Below are positions 1 through 63,224 of a DNA stretch of 64,000 bases, in pieces. Location of the stretch: contig OZ024747.1 of the NCBI GenBank assembly GCA_964016885.1, forward strand, positions 70,928,001 through 70,992,000, given 5' to 3'. Position numbers and translations under genes: made by a program. The DNA is from Eledone cirrhosa (lineage: Eukaryota). The notes under the pieces were generated by a model, which worked only from the letters and a program-made list of their open reading frames with translations, made no database searches and was not told where the DNA came from. Position 1 is the first letter of the stretch; the number at the start of each line of letters is the position of its first letter.

Positions 1-40
1 AACGGCTTGAGGTCAGCTGTCGGGGTCTTACTGGTTCCTA
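1..40 (+). mobile_element. Short 3' terminus of non-coding PLE-like family D, cut by the window edge
   Basis: AACGGCTTGAGGTCAGCTGTCGGGGTCTTACTGGTTCCTA+(TA)n matches the arms of the element at 49140-49339. Confidence 0.7.
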
Positions 41-150
41 TATATATATATATATATATATATATATATATATATATATATTAAAATAAAAGATTAAAGT
101 TTAAGCAAAGAATCGCTGCTTTCACCCTTAACGGGCTCTTCTGAAACACA

Positions 151-726
151 GTGGTTAAGGATTTCGAAGTTGATGTCATCCTCAATGCCCGTAAGTCAGT
201 GATTAATTTAGACGACTCTATTTGGATTAAAATATCTAATAGTACCCCATTCGACGTGAGTATGGGCACCAGCGATTCTCCGGAGGTTACTGATCTTATC
301 GGCCTGTTCCTTCTTTTCTCTATCAAGGAAGAATTCCCCAACGTAGGCGGTGGTTTGTACCGTGATTATGGTCTTTTGACCATGACTAAGTGCGGCCCAC
401 ATGCTTGCGACAGATTCAGAAAAGAACTCACAGCCTTCTTTAAAGGCTTCAACCTCTCCATACAGGTTGAGGCCAACCTCTCGGTCGTTAATTAACTGGA
501 CGTTACCCTCAACTTATCGAATGGCTTGCATTACCCGTATAGAAATCAGAATGATACGCTTAATTACATAAGTAAGCATTCTAACCATCCTGCCATCATA
601 ACCAAGAACCTGGTAAGAAACGTTTCATTAAGGCTTTCCCGTCTATCTACTAACGAGCATATTTTCAACGACCATTCCACATATTACAATGAACTCTTGC
701 TCGGAGTGGATTTGTCGATAAGGTAG
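151..726 (+). pseudogene. PLE reverse transcriptase C-terminal fragment (disrupted)
   Basis: FDVSMG..SPEVTDLIGLFLL and GLYRDYGL (YRDD with D>Y), then YISKHSNHP..I thumb-region motif after an in-frame stop at 493-495. Confidence 0.85.
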
Positions 727-800
727 CATATGCAGAGTACGAATATAGACCTAGAAGAAATAGATCCAGACGCATTATATGGTATAACCCACCATATAAT

Positions 801-1451
801 ATGGAGGTGGTAAGACCATTAGCTAAGATCTTTCTCTCCCTTATTATGAAGCATTTTCCCCTTACACATAAATATAGTAAAATTTTTAATAGAAATACTA
901 TTAGAATTTCTTACTCTACGACTCCTAACCTTGCACATAACATCACAGCTTCAAATTTAGCTAAACTACCTAGCTGTAGGAACACGTGCAACACTGTAGT
1001 TAGTACTAAATGTAATTATAGGAATCGGGTTGACTGCCCCCTATCCGGGAAATGCCTCTCTAGTAACATTGTCTACAAATGTAAGGTTGAAACACCCACG
1101 TCCCGTAGGGCCTACATAGGGTTAACCGCCAATAGATTCAAGCAGCGTCTTTACATGCATACCCATTCTTTTCGTTACCCTTTAAGAAGGAATATAACGT
1201 CACTTTCAGCTTATATCTGGAGTCTAAAAGACAACCACACCCAATATAAGTTACACTGGGAGATCCTTGCTAGGGCTACATCGTATAACGGAAATAAAAG
1301 ACCATGTGACCTCTGCGCTGCTGAGGCCCTAGAAATACTCTACGCCAAAGACCACATCTTAAACAAAAAATCTGAGGCAATTTCGGCTTGTAAACATAAC
1401 TTTCACAAAACTTTCCTGTATTACAGCCCCACATTATACCCTAACGGATAG
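801..1451 (+). CDS. PLE linker and GIY-YIG endonuclease domain, part of a disrupted polyprotein
   Basis: KIFNRNTIRISYS, CPLSGKCL, NIVYKC...AYIGLTANRFKQRLYMH, CDLC..E. Confidence 0.85.
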   Translation: MEVVRPLAKIFLSLIMKHFPLTHKYSKIFNRNTIRISYSTTPNLAHNITASNLAKLPSCRNTCNTVVSTKCNYRNRVDCPLSGKCLSSNIVYKCKVETPTSRRAYIGLTANRFKQRLYMHTHSFRYPLRRNITSLSAYIWSLKDNHTQYKLHWEILARATSYNGNKRPCDLCAAEALEILYAKDHILNKKSEAISACKHNFHKTFLYYSPTLYPNG

Positions 1452-2140
1452 TACGAACTATACGCGGATATTTTACGTCTTGATGTGGTAGCTAAGTATA
1501 TGTTATGTTTATACCATTACTTATTTGTATAGGTAAGTATATATTACCTGTATGTTTTGTGAAGATACGTATACTTTCACGTACGTATATTTGATTGTAT
1601 ATGTTATGGCGTATATATTATATTATATATTCTGGTACATATGCTAGTTATGTGCACACGTGCGTTTTGCGTCTGTGTGAGCATGCGGGTGCGTACGTAT
1701 GTAGGGTGTGTGTATATGTGTACTTTGTGTTTTGGTTGACGTTCGTCTCCGGACATATGTGTATTTACATGTAGGTATGTGTGTGCGCTCGTTATATACG
1801 TATTTATTTATTTATATACGTTTATTTAATTATATGTATACACGCACACACACACACACATATATATATATATTTTTTTAAATATATATTGTTATGTGTA
1901 TTTGGTGTATACATTCGTATGCGTGCGGGTACAGGCGTTGCGTCGGTTCTGTATGTGCGTGCGATTTTCTTTTTTTTGTGTGTACGTGCGGGTATTTGTA
2001 TACGAGTGTTATCGCGTATGATTGTGTATGTACGTACATGGATGCGTGAATGTATTTATTTAATTTCAATTACCTCTGTATTTTATTTACTTTATTCGTA
2101 ACTCTGAAGCCGAGAATCATTCGGTTTCCTAGTTAGAATT

Positions 2141-59856: not shown

Positions 59857-61220
59857 ATATATATATGTATACATGTATATATATTTGTGTGTGTGTGTGT
59901 GTGTGTGTGTGTGTGTGTGTGTGTGTGTGTGTCTGTGTGTGTGTGTCTGTGTGTCTGTGTGTGTGTGTGTGTGTGTGTGTGTGTGTGTGTGTCTGTGTGT
60001 GTGTGTCTGTGTGTCTGTGTGTGTGTGTGTGTGTGTGTGTGTGTGTGTTTGTGTGTGTGGGGGGGGGGGCTGTAGTATATGATGGGCTCAAATGCAGATG
60101 GAACTCGGATCTCGTAGTTCAGAAGCAACATTCTTATAAACACGGTCATGTTTCCGCCTATCTATATATGTGTGCGCATATATTAACATATGCATTTACA
60201 GATAATATTTTATAGTAATTCAAAAGGAAAGGGAAAAGAAAAGAATAAGAATATACTAGTGCAAAAAGGGTAAAGTAATGGGAGGAGAATATTAGTGATT
60301 CAGTCTGATGAGAAATAACATACTAGCATGCATAGTGAGTAACTAATAGATGTATTGGTAGATACCATGTTTAACGGGATCGAGCTGATAAAGCGGAAGG
60401 GAATTGAGTGGTTGAGTGAACTTGGGTCGGTGGGGAGATGAGGAAAAGTAGATGAAGATATAGAAGAGATGATATTCAGAGAGATATTGGAATGAAATAG
60501 AGAATATGGTTGTGGGTGGGGTGTAATCATGTATTTACAAGAGCGAAAAAAAAGAAGAGAAAATCTGAGGAGGAAAGGACTTATTCATAACAAATGAAAT
60601 CAAACGAGAGAAACGCCCAGTACCAGTATATTCACATACACTTCTTACACATACACACAGACACTCATAGACATATACAAATAAAAACGCTCACACAAAT
60701 ATTTATTTATGTATTCATTTATTTACACACATATATAAACAGAAACACAAAAACGAAGGATAGTCATAGAGATTTATAGATGTTTATATATATTATATAT
60801 ATAATGTATGTATCTATATGTATATATGTTATATTTAATGTATGTATCTATATGTATATATGTTATATATAATGTATGTATCTATATGTATATATGTTAT
60901 ATATAATATATGTATCTATATGTATGTATCTATATCTATATGTATATATATATATATATGTATATGTGTGTGTGTGTATATATATATACACACACACACA
61001 CATATATATATATATATATATATAAATGTAAGTATACATACGTACACACACATGAAATAATTATTTTATTTTGTTTATTACATAACTATATATATATATA
61101 TACATATATACATATATACATATATATATATATATGTATATATATGTATATATATATATATATATACATATATACATATATACATATATATATATATGTA
61201 TATGTATATATATATATATA

Positions 61221-61544
61221 TACATATGTACGTATGGTTTATATCGAACATTGATAATAATGTTCGATTCGTTTGTAAACAAATTCGCTCGGTATGCAAA
61301 TGAGGCTACTCAGCCGATGTGTGCTTAAGAAAATATTATATATTTTCAACCTTTCAACAGACTAGCAGAGGTATACAGTCCAGTTGAAGGGTAATGACCC
61401 AGAAACATGTTGATTGTTCCTCAAAGCCAGTATTGAACCAACAGGTGACGATCAGTCACCGGTACATCTTCAAAGCGGGCCGTTTCTTTACAAATGAATC
61501 GAACATTATTATTAATGTTCGATATAACCCATACGTACATATGT
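61221..61544. mobile_element. Element with ~57-bp terminal inverted repeats in TA-rich DNA (MITE-like or two-ended)
   Basis: TACATATGTACGTATGG..TCGAACATT..AATGTTCGATTC.TTTGTAA mirrored at ~61488-61544. Confidence 0.65.
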
Positions 61545-62143
61545 ATATGTATATATTTGTTTGTATGTAAATATATATATATGTGTGTGTATATGTGTGT
61601 GTATATTCTTACATTTATCTATCAATTGTGTCAGGGTGAGAAATAAAATTATGAAATTATAATTTTACAGATACATATATATATATATAAGTGTGTATAT
61701 ATATATATATATATATATATACACACACATATATATATATAAGTGTGTGTGTGTGTGTGTGTGTGTGTGTGTGTGTGTGTGTGTGTGTGTGTGTGTGTGT
61801 CTGTGACAAGAGTCATATAATAAGAAGTACGAGAGAAAAGGCATGATATTGCATAGATAGCAGTGAGGGTAATGTGGATGTTTGACATACTGAGAGAGAG
61901 ATGTGTATGAGTTGTAATGAATCATTGGAATAGGAGATAGCTTAGTATATAACGTGTGACTGAAATATATATAGATCAACTGATGAATTAAGAGCCATGT
62001 AGACGGGAAAGAGTGAGAGAGAGAGGGATGAAGGAAAGAGAGAAAGGTAAAATGATTGGAGTAAAGTGGGACCGATGGGGAGACAGAAATGGACAAATAT
62101 TAACCTTCACATAGTTGTGAGTTTCATTATTTTATTAGCTCAA

Positions 62144-62334
62144 GGGCGGTGGATTGGCTGTATCGGTAGAGGGTTGGACGCCATGCTTTCCAACATAGTT
62201 ATGTCCCCTTATGATATAAGTTCAAATCCCGCCGAGGTTGACTTTACCTTTCATCCTTACGGGGTCGATAAAATAAAGTACCAGTAATGCACTGGGTAAT
62301 TGCTGGCCTTGTGCCTAAAGTAGAAACAATTATT
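62144..62334 (+). mobile_element. Near full-length SINE family 1
   Basis: GGCGGTGGATTGGC start, GTTCAAATCCCGCCGAGG, GGGGTCGATAAAATAAAGTACCAGT, AT-rich tail. Confidence 0.85.
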
Positions 62335-63004
62335 TTATTGTAAAATATAATAAGCACAATAGACTGAGAGGGAGAGAGGAAGAGAGTGTGAGTTGAGAAA
62401 AGTTGATTTTTTAAATGACTTAAGAATGTTTGTGTTCTTTAAAGAATTTAAGGGAAGAACGAGCTAATTTGATGTCCTCTGTCTCTCTCTCTCCACACAT
62501 TCTCTCTCACACATACAAAGACAAACACACACACACACACACACACACACACATATATATACATATATATATATATATATATATATATATATATATATAT
62601 ATATATATATATATATTACATTACATTCAAAGTTATAGATGTCATAATCTCGAACATGCGTCTTGTCTTCCAAAATAAGCTCCAAGTAGAATTCTTAGAA
62701 TAAATCCGAGCTTTTAATCATTACAAAATAGTGAATGTCATATATACATGTATATATATCTAATGATATAAATGTACATTAGAATATATCAAACTTTAAC
62801 AGGAGACAATCTGTATAGACTGCAAGAATACATATTTCGTTACAGTATCATATTAAAATCTAACAAAAATTTTAAATATAATATATATATATATATATAT
62901 ATATATATATATATATATATATATATATATATATATATATATATATATATATATATATATATATATATATATTTATATATATATATATATATATTTATAT
63001 ATAT

Positions 63005-63224
63005 AGTAATAACAATACATTTGAAGACTGGAATCCAAAGAGGGCTCGATAAGGATAAATATATATCAAATATATAAGAACCGTAGAGCAAATATTTATT
63101 AAAATAACAGATTAAAGTTTAAGCAAAGAGTCGCTGCTTTCACCCTTAACGGGATCTTCAAGATCCCGTTAAGGGTGAAAGCAGCGATTCTTTGCTTAAA
63201 CTTTAATCTGTTATTTTAATAAAT
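63005..63224. mobile_element. Family A two-ended terminal insertion
   Basis: Arms meet at GGGATCTTC|AAGATCCC (63159-63160); long terminus on the left, short on the right; (TA)n flanks. Confidence 0.85.

Follow-up and report, generated by a model that had tools for sequence, protein, structure and literature searches.

Paired long and short ends of Penelope-like elements and hammerhead retrozymes inserted into (TA)n in an animal genome

Insertions of Penelope-like elements (PLEs) that carry an endonuclease (EN+) contain an inverted, 5'-truncated copy and a tail of 30-40 bp that is mostly one-sided; they are biased toward (TA)n (Hydra, Naiad), have a hammerhead in the pseudo-long terminal repeat (pLTR), and have target-site duplications (TSDs) that are masked by microsatellites (PMC8557442, PMC3846280, PMC2377424; cited papers are represented here and below by their accessible text). 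The origin of the tandem and inverted structures of PLEs has been named an open question (PMC8557442). The Anolis Poseidon element PAc cleaved AT-rich DNA in vitro and extended both strands, with a predicted dimer, and two internal start sites of its reverse transcriptase (RT) defined the tail without a need for hammerhead cleavage (Frangieh et al. 2024, PMC11167929). Mobilization of retrozymes by PLEs via circles was proposed as a hypothesis (PMC7229834), and a preprint argues for PLE mobilization from co-occurrence and pLTR homology while also discussing local amplification (bioRxiv 10.64898/2026.07.22.740005). Here we analyzed PLE and retrozyme insertions in a stretch of 64,000 nucleotides (the window; C7:70928001-70992000) of a 3.0-Gb animal assembly in which (TA)n is abundant, and followed their families through the rest of the assembly.

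Window insertions were mapped by self-alignment and end mapping. Divergent pairs fused to (TA)n, in which a long arm ends at one site (L) and a short arm at another (S), were present for families A, B, C, D, E, and F and for a retrozyme with a 310-nt unit; the letters A to G are our own and differ from those of a preliminary description of this DNA, whose approximate offsets agreed with ours. Family A formed five pairs (82-2651, 17508-17804, 47563-47725, 51593-51824, and 63006-63222) with about 93 nt between L and S, and family B formed two (17875-22351 and 58179-58501) with an offset of 57-59 nt. The three family C loci (49141-49337, 2704-2799 with a short arm of only 9 nt, and a copy ending at 38) had an offset of about 79 nt. 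At single loci, the offset was about 64 nt in family D (22499-22835), 96 nt in family F (59477-59857), and 36 nt in the retrozyme (2905-8767), while family E (46835-47135) had about 75 nt in the window and 82 in most copies. Unpaired arms lay at 37046-37203, 49360-49389, and 61052-61089.

The two sites were used as a pair within single insertions. All 46 divergent retrozyme pairs in a positional census of C1:1-113 Mb joined one S to one L end (P = 1.4e-14 versus independent choice), and a second retrozyme set had S+L in 17 of 18 divergent loci (19 loci fetched). Fifteen loci of the 312-nt retrozyme subfamily included nine clear S+L pairs, with neither LL nor SS. A family B census of the first 36.6 Mb gave 35 S+L pairs out of 41 (one-sided P of about 2e-6, hand calculation). 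These positional censuses are free of similarity ranking. Similarity-ranked samples contributed 72 S+L pairs (A, 15; B, 19; D, 17; E, 11; F, 10) and two same-type pairs (L058 and L249); for eight of the 15 family A pairs, the query had selected for L arms. Five loci were dropped as tandem read-throughs rather than L ends (L127, L136, L072, L235, and L239), together with six duplicate matches, the window's own copies, and L058, whose ragged L-like partner was counted as same-type. Family C was excluded from the pairing statistics because of its fixed center. Family G was absent from the preliminary description; its eight divergent loci (window included; 21 examined), scored by eye, had one L end in six cases, none in two, and two in no case. 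The S+L rule is near-strict yet not universal, as single-arm and long+long insertions also occur.

End mapping gave two defined sites per family, as the preliminary description had predicted: of 169 non-window matched arms in the similarity-search samples, 165 terminated at S or L, and (TA)3 was found at the junction in 149 of these 165, against a background of 12-16%. The queries for A, C, D, E, and F stopped before S, and the family B query ended at S. Genome-wide exact patterns counted 14,086 S ends and 12,579 L ends for family B, and 767 S and 736 L ends for the retrozyme on the forward strand; reverse-strand counts of the latter are inflated by several matches per site. Assembly-wide, about 1,500 dispersed retrozyme loci have two fixed ends. 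Informative TSDs were present in nine of 108 pairs (1.9 ± 1.1 expected from 300 permutations), seven of them 13-15 nt long, one 8 nt, and one an uninformative 30-nt match. When wider offsets were allowed, retrozyme TSDs of 12-15 nt were found in five of 17 loci (1.7 ± 0.9 expected), two of which lean on the AT run of the unit itself. At 4711 and 4742, an independent public sequencing run had loose ends joined to TA, which is evidence against an artifact of assembly. Tails of TA added by the RT in a telomerase-like manner were disfavored because interrupted TA was duplicated as a TSD and because a 13-nt TSD at L232 lacked a TA tract.

The centers of the 72 pairs, where the arms meet, overlapped by 1-4 nt in 24 cases and by at least 5 nt in six, were blunt in six, carried 1-35 nt of filler or unaligned sequence in 31, and could not be resolved in five; the window retrozyme had a 3-nt microhomology at its inversion point. 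Among 67 resolved pairs, the S arm extended further 5' than the L arm in 27, five more had an L arm consisting of the tail only, and 13 had equal 5' starts. In L1 twin priming, both 3' ends at the target start synthesis on one RNA, giving an inversion, microhomology at the center, a TSD, and poly(A). The arms studied here overlapped in 62 of the 67 resolved pairs, which separates them from that process; with only five of 67 nonoverlapping and flanks of (TA)n, we rejected the L1-type twin-priming product. The 5' ends of retrozyme arms were scattered around the unit with no pile-up at the hammerhead cut, and the window arms traversed the hammerhead up to 13 times. The end sites, S+L pairing, TA flanks, TSDs, center microhomology, arm haplotype identity, and hammerhead read-through are all features of the DNA as it stands, and the 310-nt hammerhead retrozyme bears the whole PLE footprint, including TSDs of 12-15 nt like those of PLEs.

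Two local patterns in the arm starts were also seen. About nine arms of the 29 family B loci start just before the predicted hammerhead cut, 3-4 nt upstream, where the palindromic stem III has its center (L089, L090, L094, L096, L098, L102, L103, and L106), possibly a strong stop of the RT at a folded ribozyme on uncleaved or religated RNA; the query began near this spot, which alone should not create a pile-up. In family F (L176), 5' ends piled up about 160 nt before S, at a position that in one subfamily resembles a 3' splice site (CTAAT branch-like motif, pyrimidine tract, and AG).

The two arms of a locus tended to carry the same variants, and in retrozyme arrays a single haplotype almost always ran through all units of both. 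Minor alleles were shared more often between the arms of one locus than between arms of different loci in families B (0.71 versus 0.15), D (0.60 versus 0.19), F (0.55 versus 0.29), A (0.49 versus 0.18), and E (0.37 versus 0.11), although in PLE families subfamily succession could explain this too. Eight retrozyme arrays with 310/311-nt units represented seven haplotypes; within an array, every unit read had the same one, on both arms alike. The variant 293G was on both arms in all seven fully listed arrays; it has 810 copies, which ruled out that it is private to a single array. In the C1483 array, 20 units in a row (2 in the left arm, 18 in the right) had G at the cleavage position; elsewhere in the assembly this G was found as one singleton only. 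Five of five further multi-unit arrays had G (312 type) or T (310 type) at the cleavage position on both arms. A G at the hammerhead cleavage position should block cleavage (the NUH rule). A source array releasing monomers of this kind is therefore unlikely, but one may have escaped assembly. The arms share array-specific haplotypes, including variants that occur in no more than one or two arrays of the genome, which makes a single circular (or single multimeric) RNA the more plausible source; the data speak for two RTs on one RNA circle rather than for two independent templates. Of the templates offered by the preliminary description, the tandem or circular one is favored, and two independent templates were not supported. 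A third arm-discordant array, L305, was proposed and rejected, as the arm does carry the variant.

Array-fixed A>G changes recurred on different haplotypes (L261, L297, and L299-L306) at unit position 34 and at 293/295, which lies within a predicted long stem; T was also found at position 34. RNA editing of the template is a weak lead for these changes. A-to-I editing as the source of the cleavage-site G was set aside as not specific, because T occupies the same position in two arrays.

We consider it likely that a PLE ribonucleoprotein of dimeric type makes a staggered cut and primes both 3' ends on one RNA, at L and S. The complex (RT plus GIY-YIG endonuclease, probably a dimer) would cut (TA)n or AT-rich DNA with a stagger of about 12-15 nt, and the two target 3' ends would prime the RT on one bound RNA, one at L and the other at S. 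Both sites are internal and follow the hammerhead, with 35-96 nt between them. The leading cDNA would be displaced by the trailing RT, giving overlapping arms. On a circular retrozyme monomer, both RTs would circle repeatedly and leave two divergent tandem arms, whereas on linear PLE RNA one template with strand displacement would suffice. The cDNA 3' ends would be joined through a microhomology of 0-4 nt or a short filler, repair would yield the order TSD, inverted arm, direct arm, TSD, and early failure of one priming would leave a mini-arm or a single arm. From the insertion structures we infer the dimer, the strand displacement, the circular template, and the PLE as mobilizer of the retrozyme. 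With somewhat less assurance, the balance tips toward a fuller form of this mechanism, in which one dimer carries out asymmetric double target-primed reverse transcription on one RNA with RT sites 35-96 nt apart; on circles this would become double rolling-circle reverse transcription that produces kilobase two-armed arrays in one step, each array being the fossil of one RNA circle, including post-cleavage changes such as G at the cleavage position. The earlier proposal of GIY-YIG PLE machinery, a (TA)n target, and two priming sites, with the retrozyme under the same rule, gained support from these results.

Several observations weigh against this mechanism. Of the retrozyme census ends, 23 of 115 were unpaired, some because exact patterns missed the partner; six of the 41 pairs in the family B census were same-type, four of them LL, and the two LL cases inspected were true long+long insertions. 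Loci L249, L058, and L037 were further exceptions, and the 312-nt subfamily has a lone long arm in the window (37046-37203). Among 141 loci of A, B, D, E, and F, 20 had a lone arm with its 5' end directly on the microsatellite and no partner of at least 20 nt; three of these 20 had mini partners of 8-12 nt. The preliminary claim that each insertion has two ends therefore holds for the pairs, which are real in the window and genome-wide, and fails for the single arms and long+long cases. Most TSDs were unreadable in pure TA, and an empty site sought through a possible segmental duplicate (C7:72.13 Mb) was not obtained, as the match covered the element only. In two older 312-nt arrays, L265 and L268, a variant was fixed in one arm only (2/2 versus 0/2 and 2/2 versus 0/4), which local unit duplication or sibling templates could explain. 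In a blastn comparison limited to window families, the retrozyme matched none of the ends of A, B, C, D, and F (E < 0.05); for its mobilization by a PLE in trans, the shared footprint stood and homology to these families was not found. That footprint suggests a PLE as the mobilizer. Finally, the start site of Poseidon PAc was equal on the top and bottom strands in vitro, so the asymmetry was not reproduced there (PMC11167929).

The closest alternative is that two RNAs, one per RT subunit and siblings of one multimeric transcript, or one uncleaved linear multimer primed in two units, served as template. We regard it as unlikely. Sibling RNAs could be joined through stem III of dimeric hammerheads, a palindrome in the retrozyme, B, and F; on an otherwise common background, L265 and L268 each have a variant fixed in one arm only; and uncleaved RNA is the main in vitro substrate (PMC11167929). 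However, the assembly contains no source array for the 20 units whose cleavage position is G; such a G should block self-cleavage, so sibling monomers should not carry it; and young arrays lack the unit-to-unit heterogeneity of a source. Fold-back, in which one priming is followed by self-primed synthesis of the inverted arm (an idea in PMC3846280), accounts for the shared haplotypes and suits both the 13 pairs with equal 5' starts and the fixed palindrome of family C (28/28 non-window copies S+L, mostly with the same center), for which it may apply. As a general explanation it is extremely unlikely, because the 27 longer S arms and the five tail-only L arms mean that each arm has sequence absent from the other; neither was copied from the other, and fold-back is excluded for those 32 pairs.

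A different microsatellite-targeting retrotransposon, such as a Dong/R4-type long interspersed element (LINE), could act by L1-like twin priming, with S reflecting an internal ACATATATAT that anneals to the target. The position of S at the retrozyme unit's only long AT run, the lack of detected PLE pLTR homology in the retrozyme, and the listing of Dong-R4 as recently active in an octopus (PMC13282606) speak for this idea, which nevertheless seems very unlikely to us: L has just 2-4 nt of AT microhomology and yet is used once per insertion, the ends lie about 130 and 165 nt inside the hammerhead-defined monomer rather than at an RNA 3' end, the arms overlap, and TSD length and layout equal those of the neighboring PLE families. 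Least credible is growth after insertion by unequal exchange and gene conversion (the satellite model of bioRxiv 10.64898/2026.07.22.740005) or inversion as a long-read assembly artifact. Some older arrays do have variants in two of eight units (L267), as local growth would have it, but it does not fit about 1,500 dispersed two-ended loci, TSDs, locus-specific centers, and haplotypes identical across inverted arms, and the TA-joined ends seen at both sites in the independent run oppose an artifact. Priming of both 3' ends by one PLE complex on one RNA is the reading that we prefer, and the features of the window are listed below with their coordinates and strands.

1-38, plus strand: end of the S arm of a palindromic family C mini-element (L260), long arm ~150 nt left of the window
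82-147, minus strand: family A (Hydra-type PLE) short arm, 3' end on (TA)n
148-2651, plus strand: family A long arm; broken RT and C-terminal GIY-YIG open reading frame (ORF) at 145-1451, then 3' untranslated region
Within 148-2651, plus strand: family A long arm ends, with the S site at ~2558, then a 93-nt tail, and the L site at 2651
2489-2541, plus strand: family A type I hammerhead-like motif with a CAGAAGA variant core; cut predicted ~21 nt before S
2704-2799, plus strand: family C stump, 9-nt inverted short arm and long arm, (TA)n on both sides
2905-4541, minus strand: retrozyme (310-nt unit) left arm, 5.3 units, ending at S (unit position 163)
4539-8767, plus strand: retrozyme right arm, 13.6 identical units, ending at L (unit position 199)
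17508-17704, minus strand: family A short arm
17716-17804, plus strand: family A long arm, tail only
17875-19649, minus strand: family B (putative Neptune/Nematis-type PLE) long arm, ending at L
19650-22351, plus strand: family B rearranged center (19650-20166) and short arm, ending at S; 5'-truncated RT/GIY-YIG ORF (to 21940)
~22140-22190, plus strand: family B hammerhead in the short arm
22499-22627, minus strand: family D short arm
22639-22835, plus strand: family D long arm; degenerate hammerhead core at 22686, without stem II
37046-37203, plus strand: 312-nt retrozyme subfamily, lone long arm without partner (counterexample)
46835-46930, minus strand: family E (498-nt retrozyme unit) short arm
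46926-47135, plus strand: family E long arm
47563-47725: family A, tail-only long arm at 47563-47657 (minus) and short arm at 47659-47725 (plus)
49141-49337: family C fixed palindrome of ~205 bp, short arm at 49141-49197 (minus) and long arm at 49200-49337 (plus); 3' half of a hammerhead inside
51593-51824: family A long arm (minus) and short arm (plus)
58179-58501: family B, short arm at 58179-58433 (minus) and tail-only long arm at 58449-58501 (plus)
59477-59857: family F (PLE) short arm (minus) and long arm (plus), type I hammerhead; longer copies have a GIY-YIG ORF upstream
61223-61665: family G, retrozyme unit of ~400 nt with an internal microsatellite; left arm at 61223-61283 (minus) ends inside that microsatellite
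Within 61223-61665, plus strand: family G right arm, reaching a decayed L end
63006-63222: family A long arm (minus) and short arm (plus)

By ORF content, A, B, and F are assigned to the EN+ PLEs, with one ORF predicted to encode RT plus, at its C terminus, a GIY-YIG endonuclease. The family B ORF gave a weak RVT_1 match (E of 3.8e-4, below the Pfam cut-off), and three of the four window ORFs had no Pfam match; protein Atlas neighbors of the A and B ORFs carry RVT_1/GIY-YIG. Family F was linked to PLEs by tblastn, in which the A ORF matched upstream parts of F copies. All PLE copies inspected were broken or truncated. Some family A copies run through L into the next ORF, indicating a tandem/pLTR organization, and in these copies L is internal, with about 45 nt separating it from the start of the ORF that follows; no read-through past L was found for B or F in the sampled copies. 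The family A read-through copies had RWR/LWR and DKT motifs, with CNCRNRVDC, CDLC, and CKH in three copies (by eye). Traits of the Hydra clade are RWK-like and DKT motifs, a CxCX5C linker, no CCHH, CxxC and CxH around E and N, and (TA)n targets (PMC8557442). With this motif set, family A is classed by sequence as a Hydra-clade PLE. Neptune and Nematis elements are marked by a CX2-5CxxC linker and by CCHH in the endonuclease. Family B has a CX4CxxC linker (CIDKKCITC) and cysteine residues in its GIY-YIG core, with Neptune and Nematis taken as one type.

Hammerhead cores were present in A, B, and F, and every window family has a type I hammerhead core, whole or partial; the families are unrelated in sequence only, and share this element. 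Stem III was palindromic in the retrozyme, B, and F. S lies 21 nt downstream of the predicted cut in A, 166 in B, 17 in C, 179 in E, and 36 in F, the cut of family A being placed by the hammerhead consensus. A gathering scan of the window with Rfam gave no match, so hammerheads were called by motif alone, and a PDB sequence search gave no relevant structure. Family C consists of a palindrome of about 205 bp plus a tail, with a center shared by nearly all sampled copies (the query spanned the center). The extra tail was on one arm in 28 of 28 non-window copies of C, which were S+L, and in all 17 paired copies of D (28 sampled). Families C and D were rejected as miniature inverted-repeat transposable elements (MITEs) because one arm has an extra tail of 64-79 nt and symmetric terminal inverted repeats are lacking. 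For family D, with its degenerate hammerhead core, no ORF link was found. Family C appears to spread as a frozen palindrome that is open to misannotation as a MITE (49141-49337 and L201-L229), with an older relative at 26723-26904.

Three retrozyme families are recognized in the window from unit structure: the 310/311/312-nt family, E (498 nt), and G (about 400 nt). They consist of tandem, low-GC, ORF-less units with a type I hammerhead, E slightly exceeding the 150-450-bp range of non-LTR retrozyme units; GC contents were 35% and 36%, and the longest ATG ORFs were 30 and 46 amino acids. Each 310-nt window unit contains a minimal type I hammerhead with a predicted cut after unit position 34, and S sits at the one long AT run of the unit. 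Both 310- and 311-nt versions are found among young arrays. The window 310-nt variant differs at two sites (4699 and 4783) from the form dominant in four public runs and in most C1 arrays read, and represents a very recent sub-burst. At L267 (C3:8.72 Mb), three same-orientation 312-nt blocks are joined by a repeated 29-nt insert, either a higher-order duplication or an assembly issue. A 340-nt self-closing contig (runs X4-X6) was not taken as a sign of circles, as tandem DNA gives the same result.

Other features of the window were noted. Different families were inserted in each other's flanking TA tracts, forming nested clusters (17508-22835; L033, L042, L290, and L293). A further minus-strand fragment with a hammerhead is fused to (TA)n at 30187-30240. 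A Helitron-like piece at 16731-17366 begins with CTAG at a TA tract, like the CTAG start at 45565; by motif, it contains a C-terminal fragment of a PIF1-type helicase, for which Pfam gave no match. An abundant dispersed repeat (39208-39726, 43090-43280, 54400-55095, and 62143-62350, with a 228-bp tandem at 54633-55077) showed no two-ended rule as far as inspected.

Overall, the core rule is an established mark of PLEs, to which this analysis adds counts and an extension to retrozymes. What is new is that the two sites pair near-strictly, that PLEs and the retrozyme share a TSD geometry, and that the arrays give evidence of a single template. In the literature searched (supplements and subscription papers lay outside the search), we found no report of paired use of two sites within one insertion, of a retrozyme bearing the full PLE footprint with its TSDs, of single-template evidence for retrozyme arrays, or of two-armed inverted retrozyme arrays. 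The genome offers mapped start sites, a stagger length, and a test of template identity over about 1,500 young retrozyme insertions, from which specific in vitro predictions follow: which two RNA positions are primed, one each per event, with marked circles remaining unmixed. A class of "satellites" and false MITEs would be explained as single retrotransposition events, and the writing of kilobases from circular RNA into AT-rich DNA would be of interest to genome-writing work.

The proposed scheme shares with Poseidon PAc the AT-rich cut, two internal starts, extension of both strands, and a predicted dimer, while the accessible text of that study has no statement that both sites are paired in one insertion or on one RNA (PMC11167929). 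The retrozymes resemble the animal non-LTR retrozymes in their tandem low-GC units, type I hammerhead, and absence of an ORF. The accessible text of the two retrozyme papers relies on co-occurrence, hammerhead type, and pLTR homology, contains no insertion-end mapping, and does not describe two-armed inverted arrays ("inverted" has 0 occurrences in PMC7229834; bioRxiv 10.64898/2026.07.22.740005). Unlike L1 twin-priming products, the insertions lack poly(A), have both primings at fixed internal sites, and have arms that overlap in nearly all resolved pairs. They agree with known EN+ PLEs in the inverted copy, the one-sided tail, the (TA)n bias, and the pLTR hammerhead; they differ from them, as far as the accessible text of those papers goes, in that the tails are 36-96 nt long, the pairing was counted and is near-strict, TSDs of 12-15 nt were recovered from interrupted TA, and ORF-less families obey the same rule.

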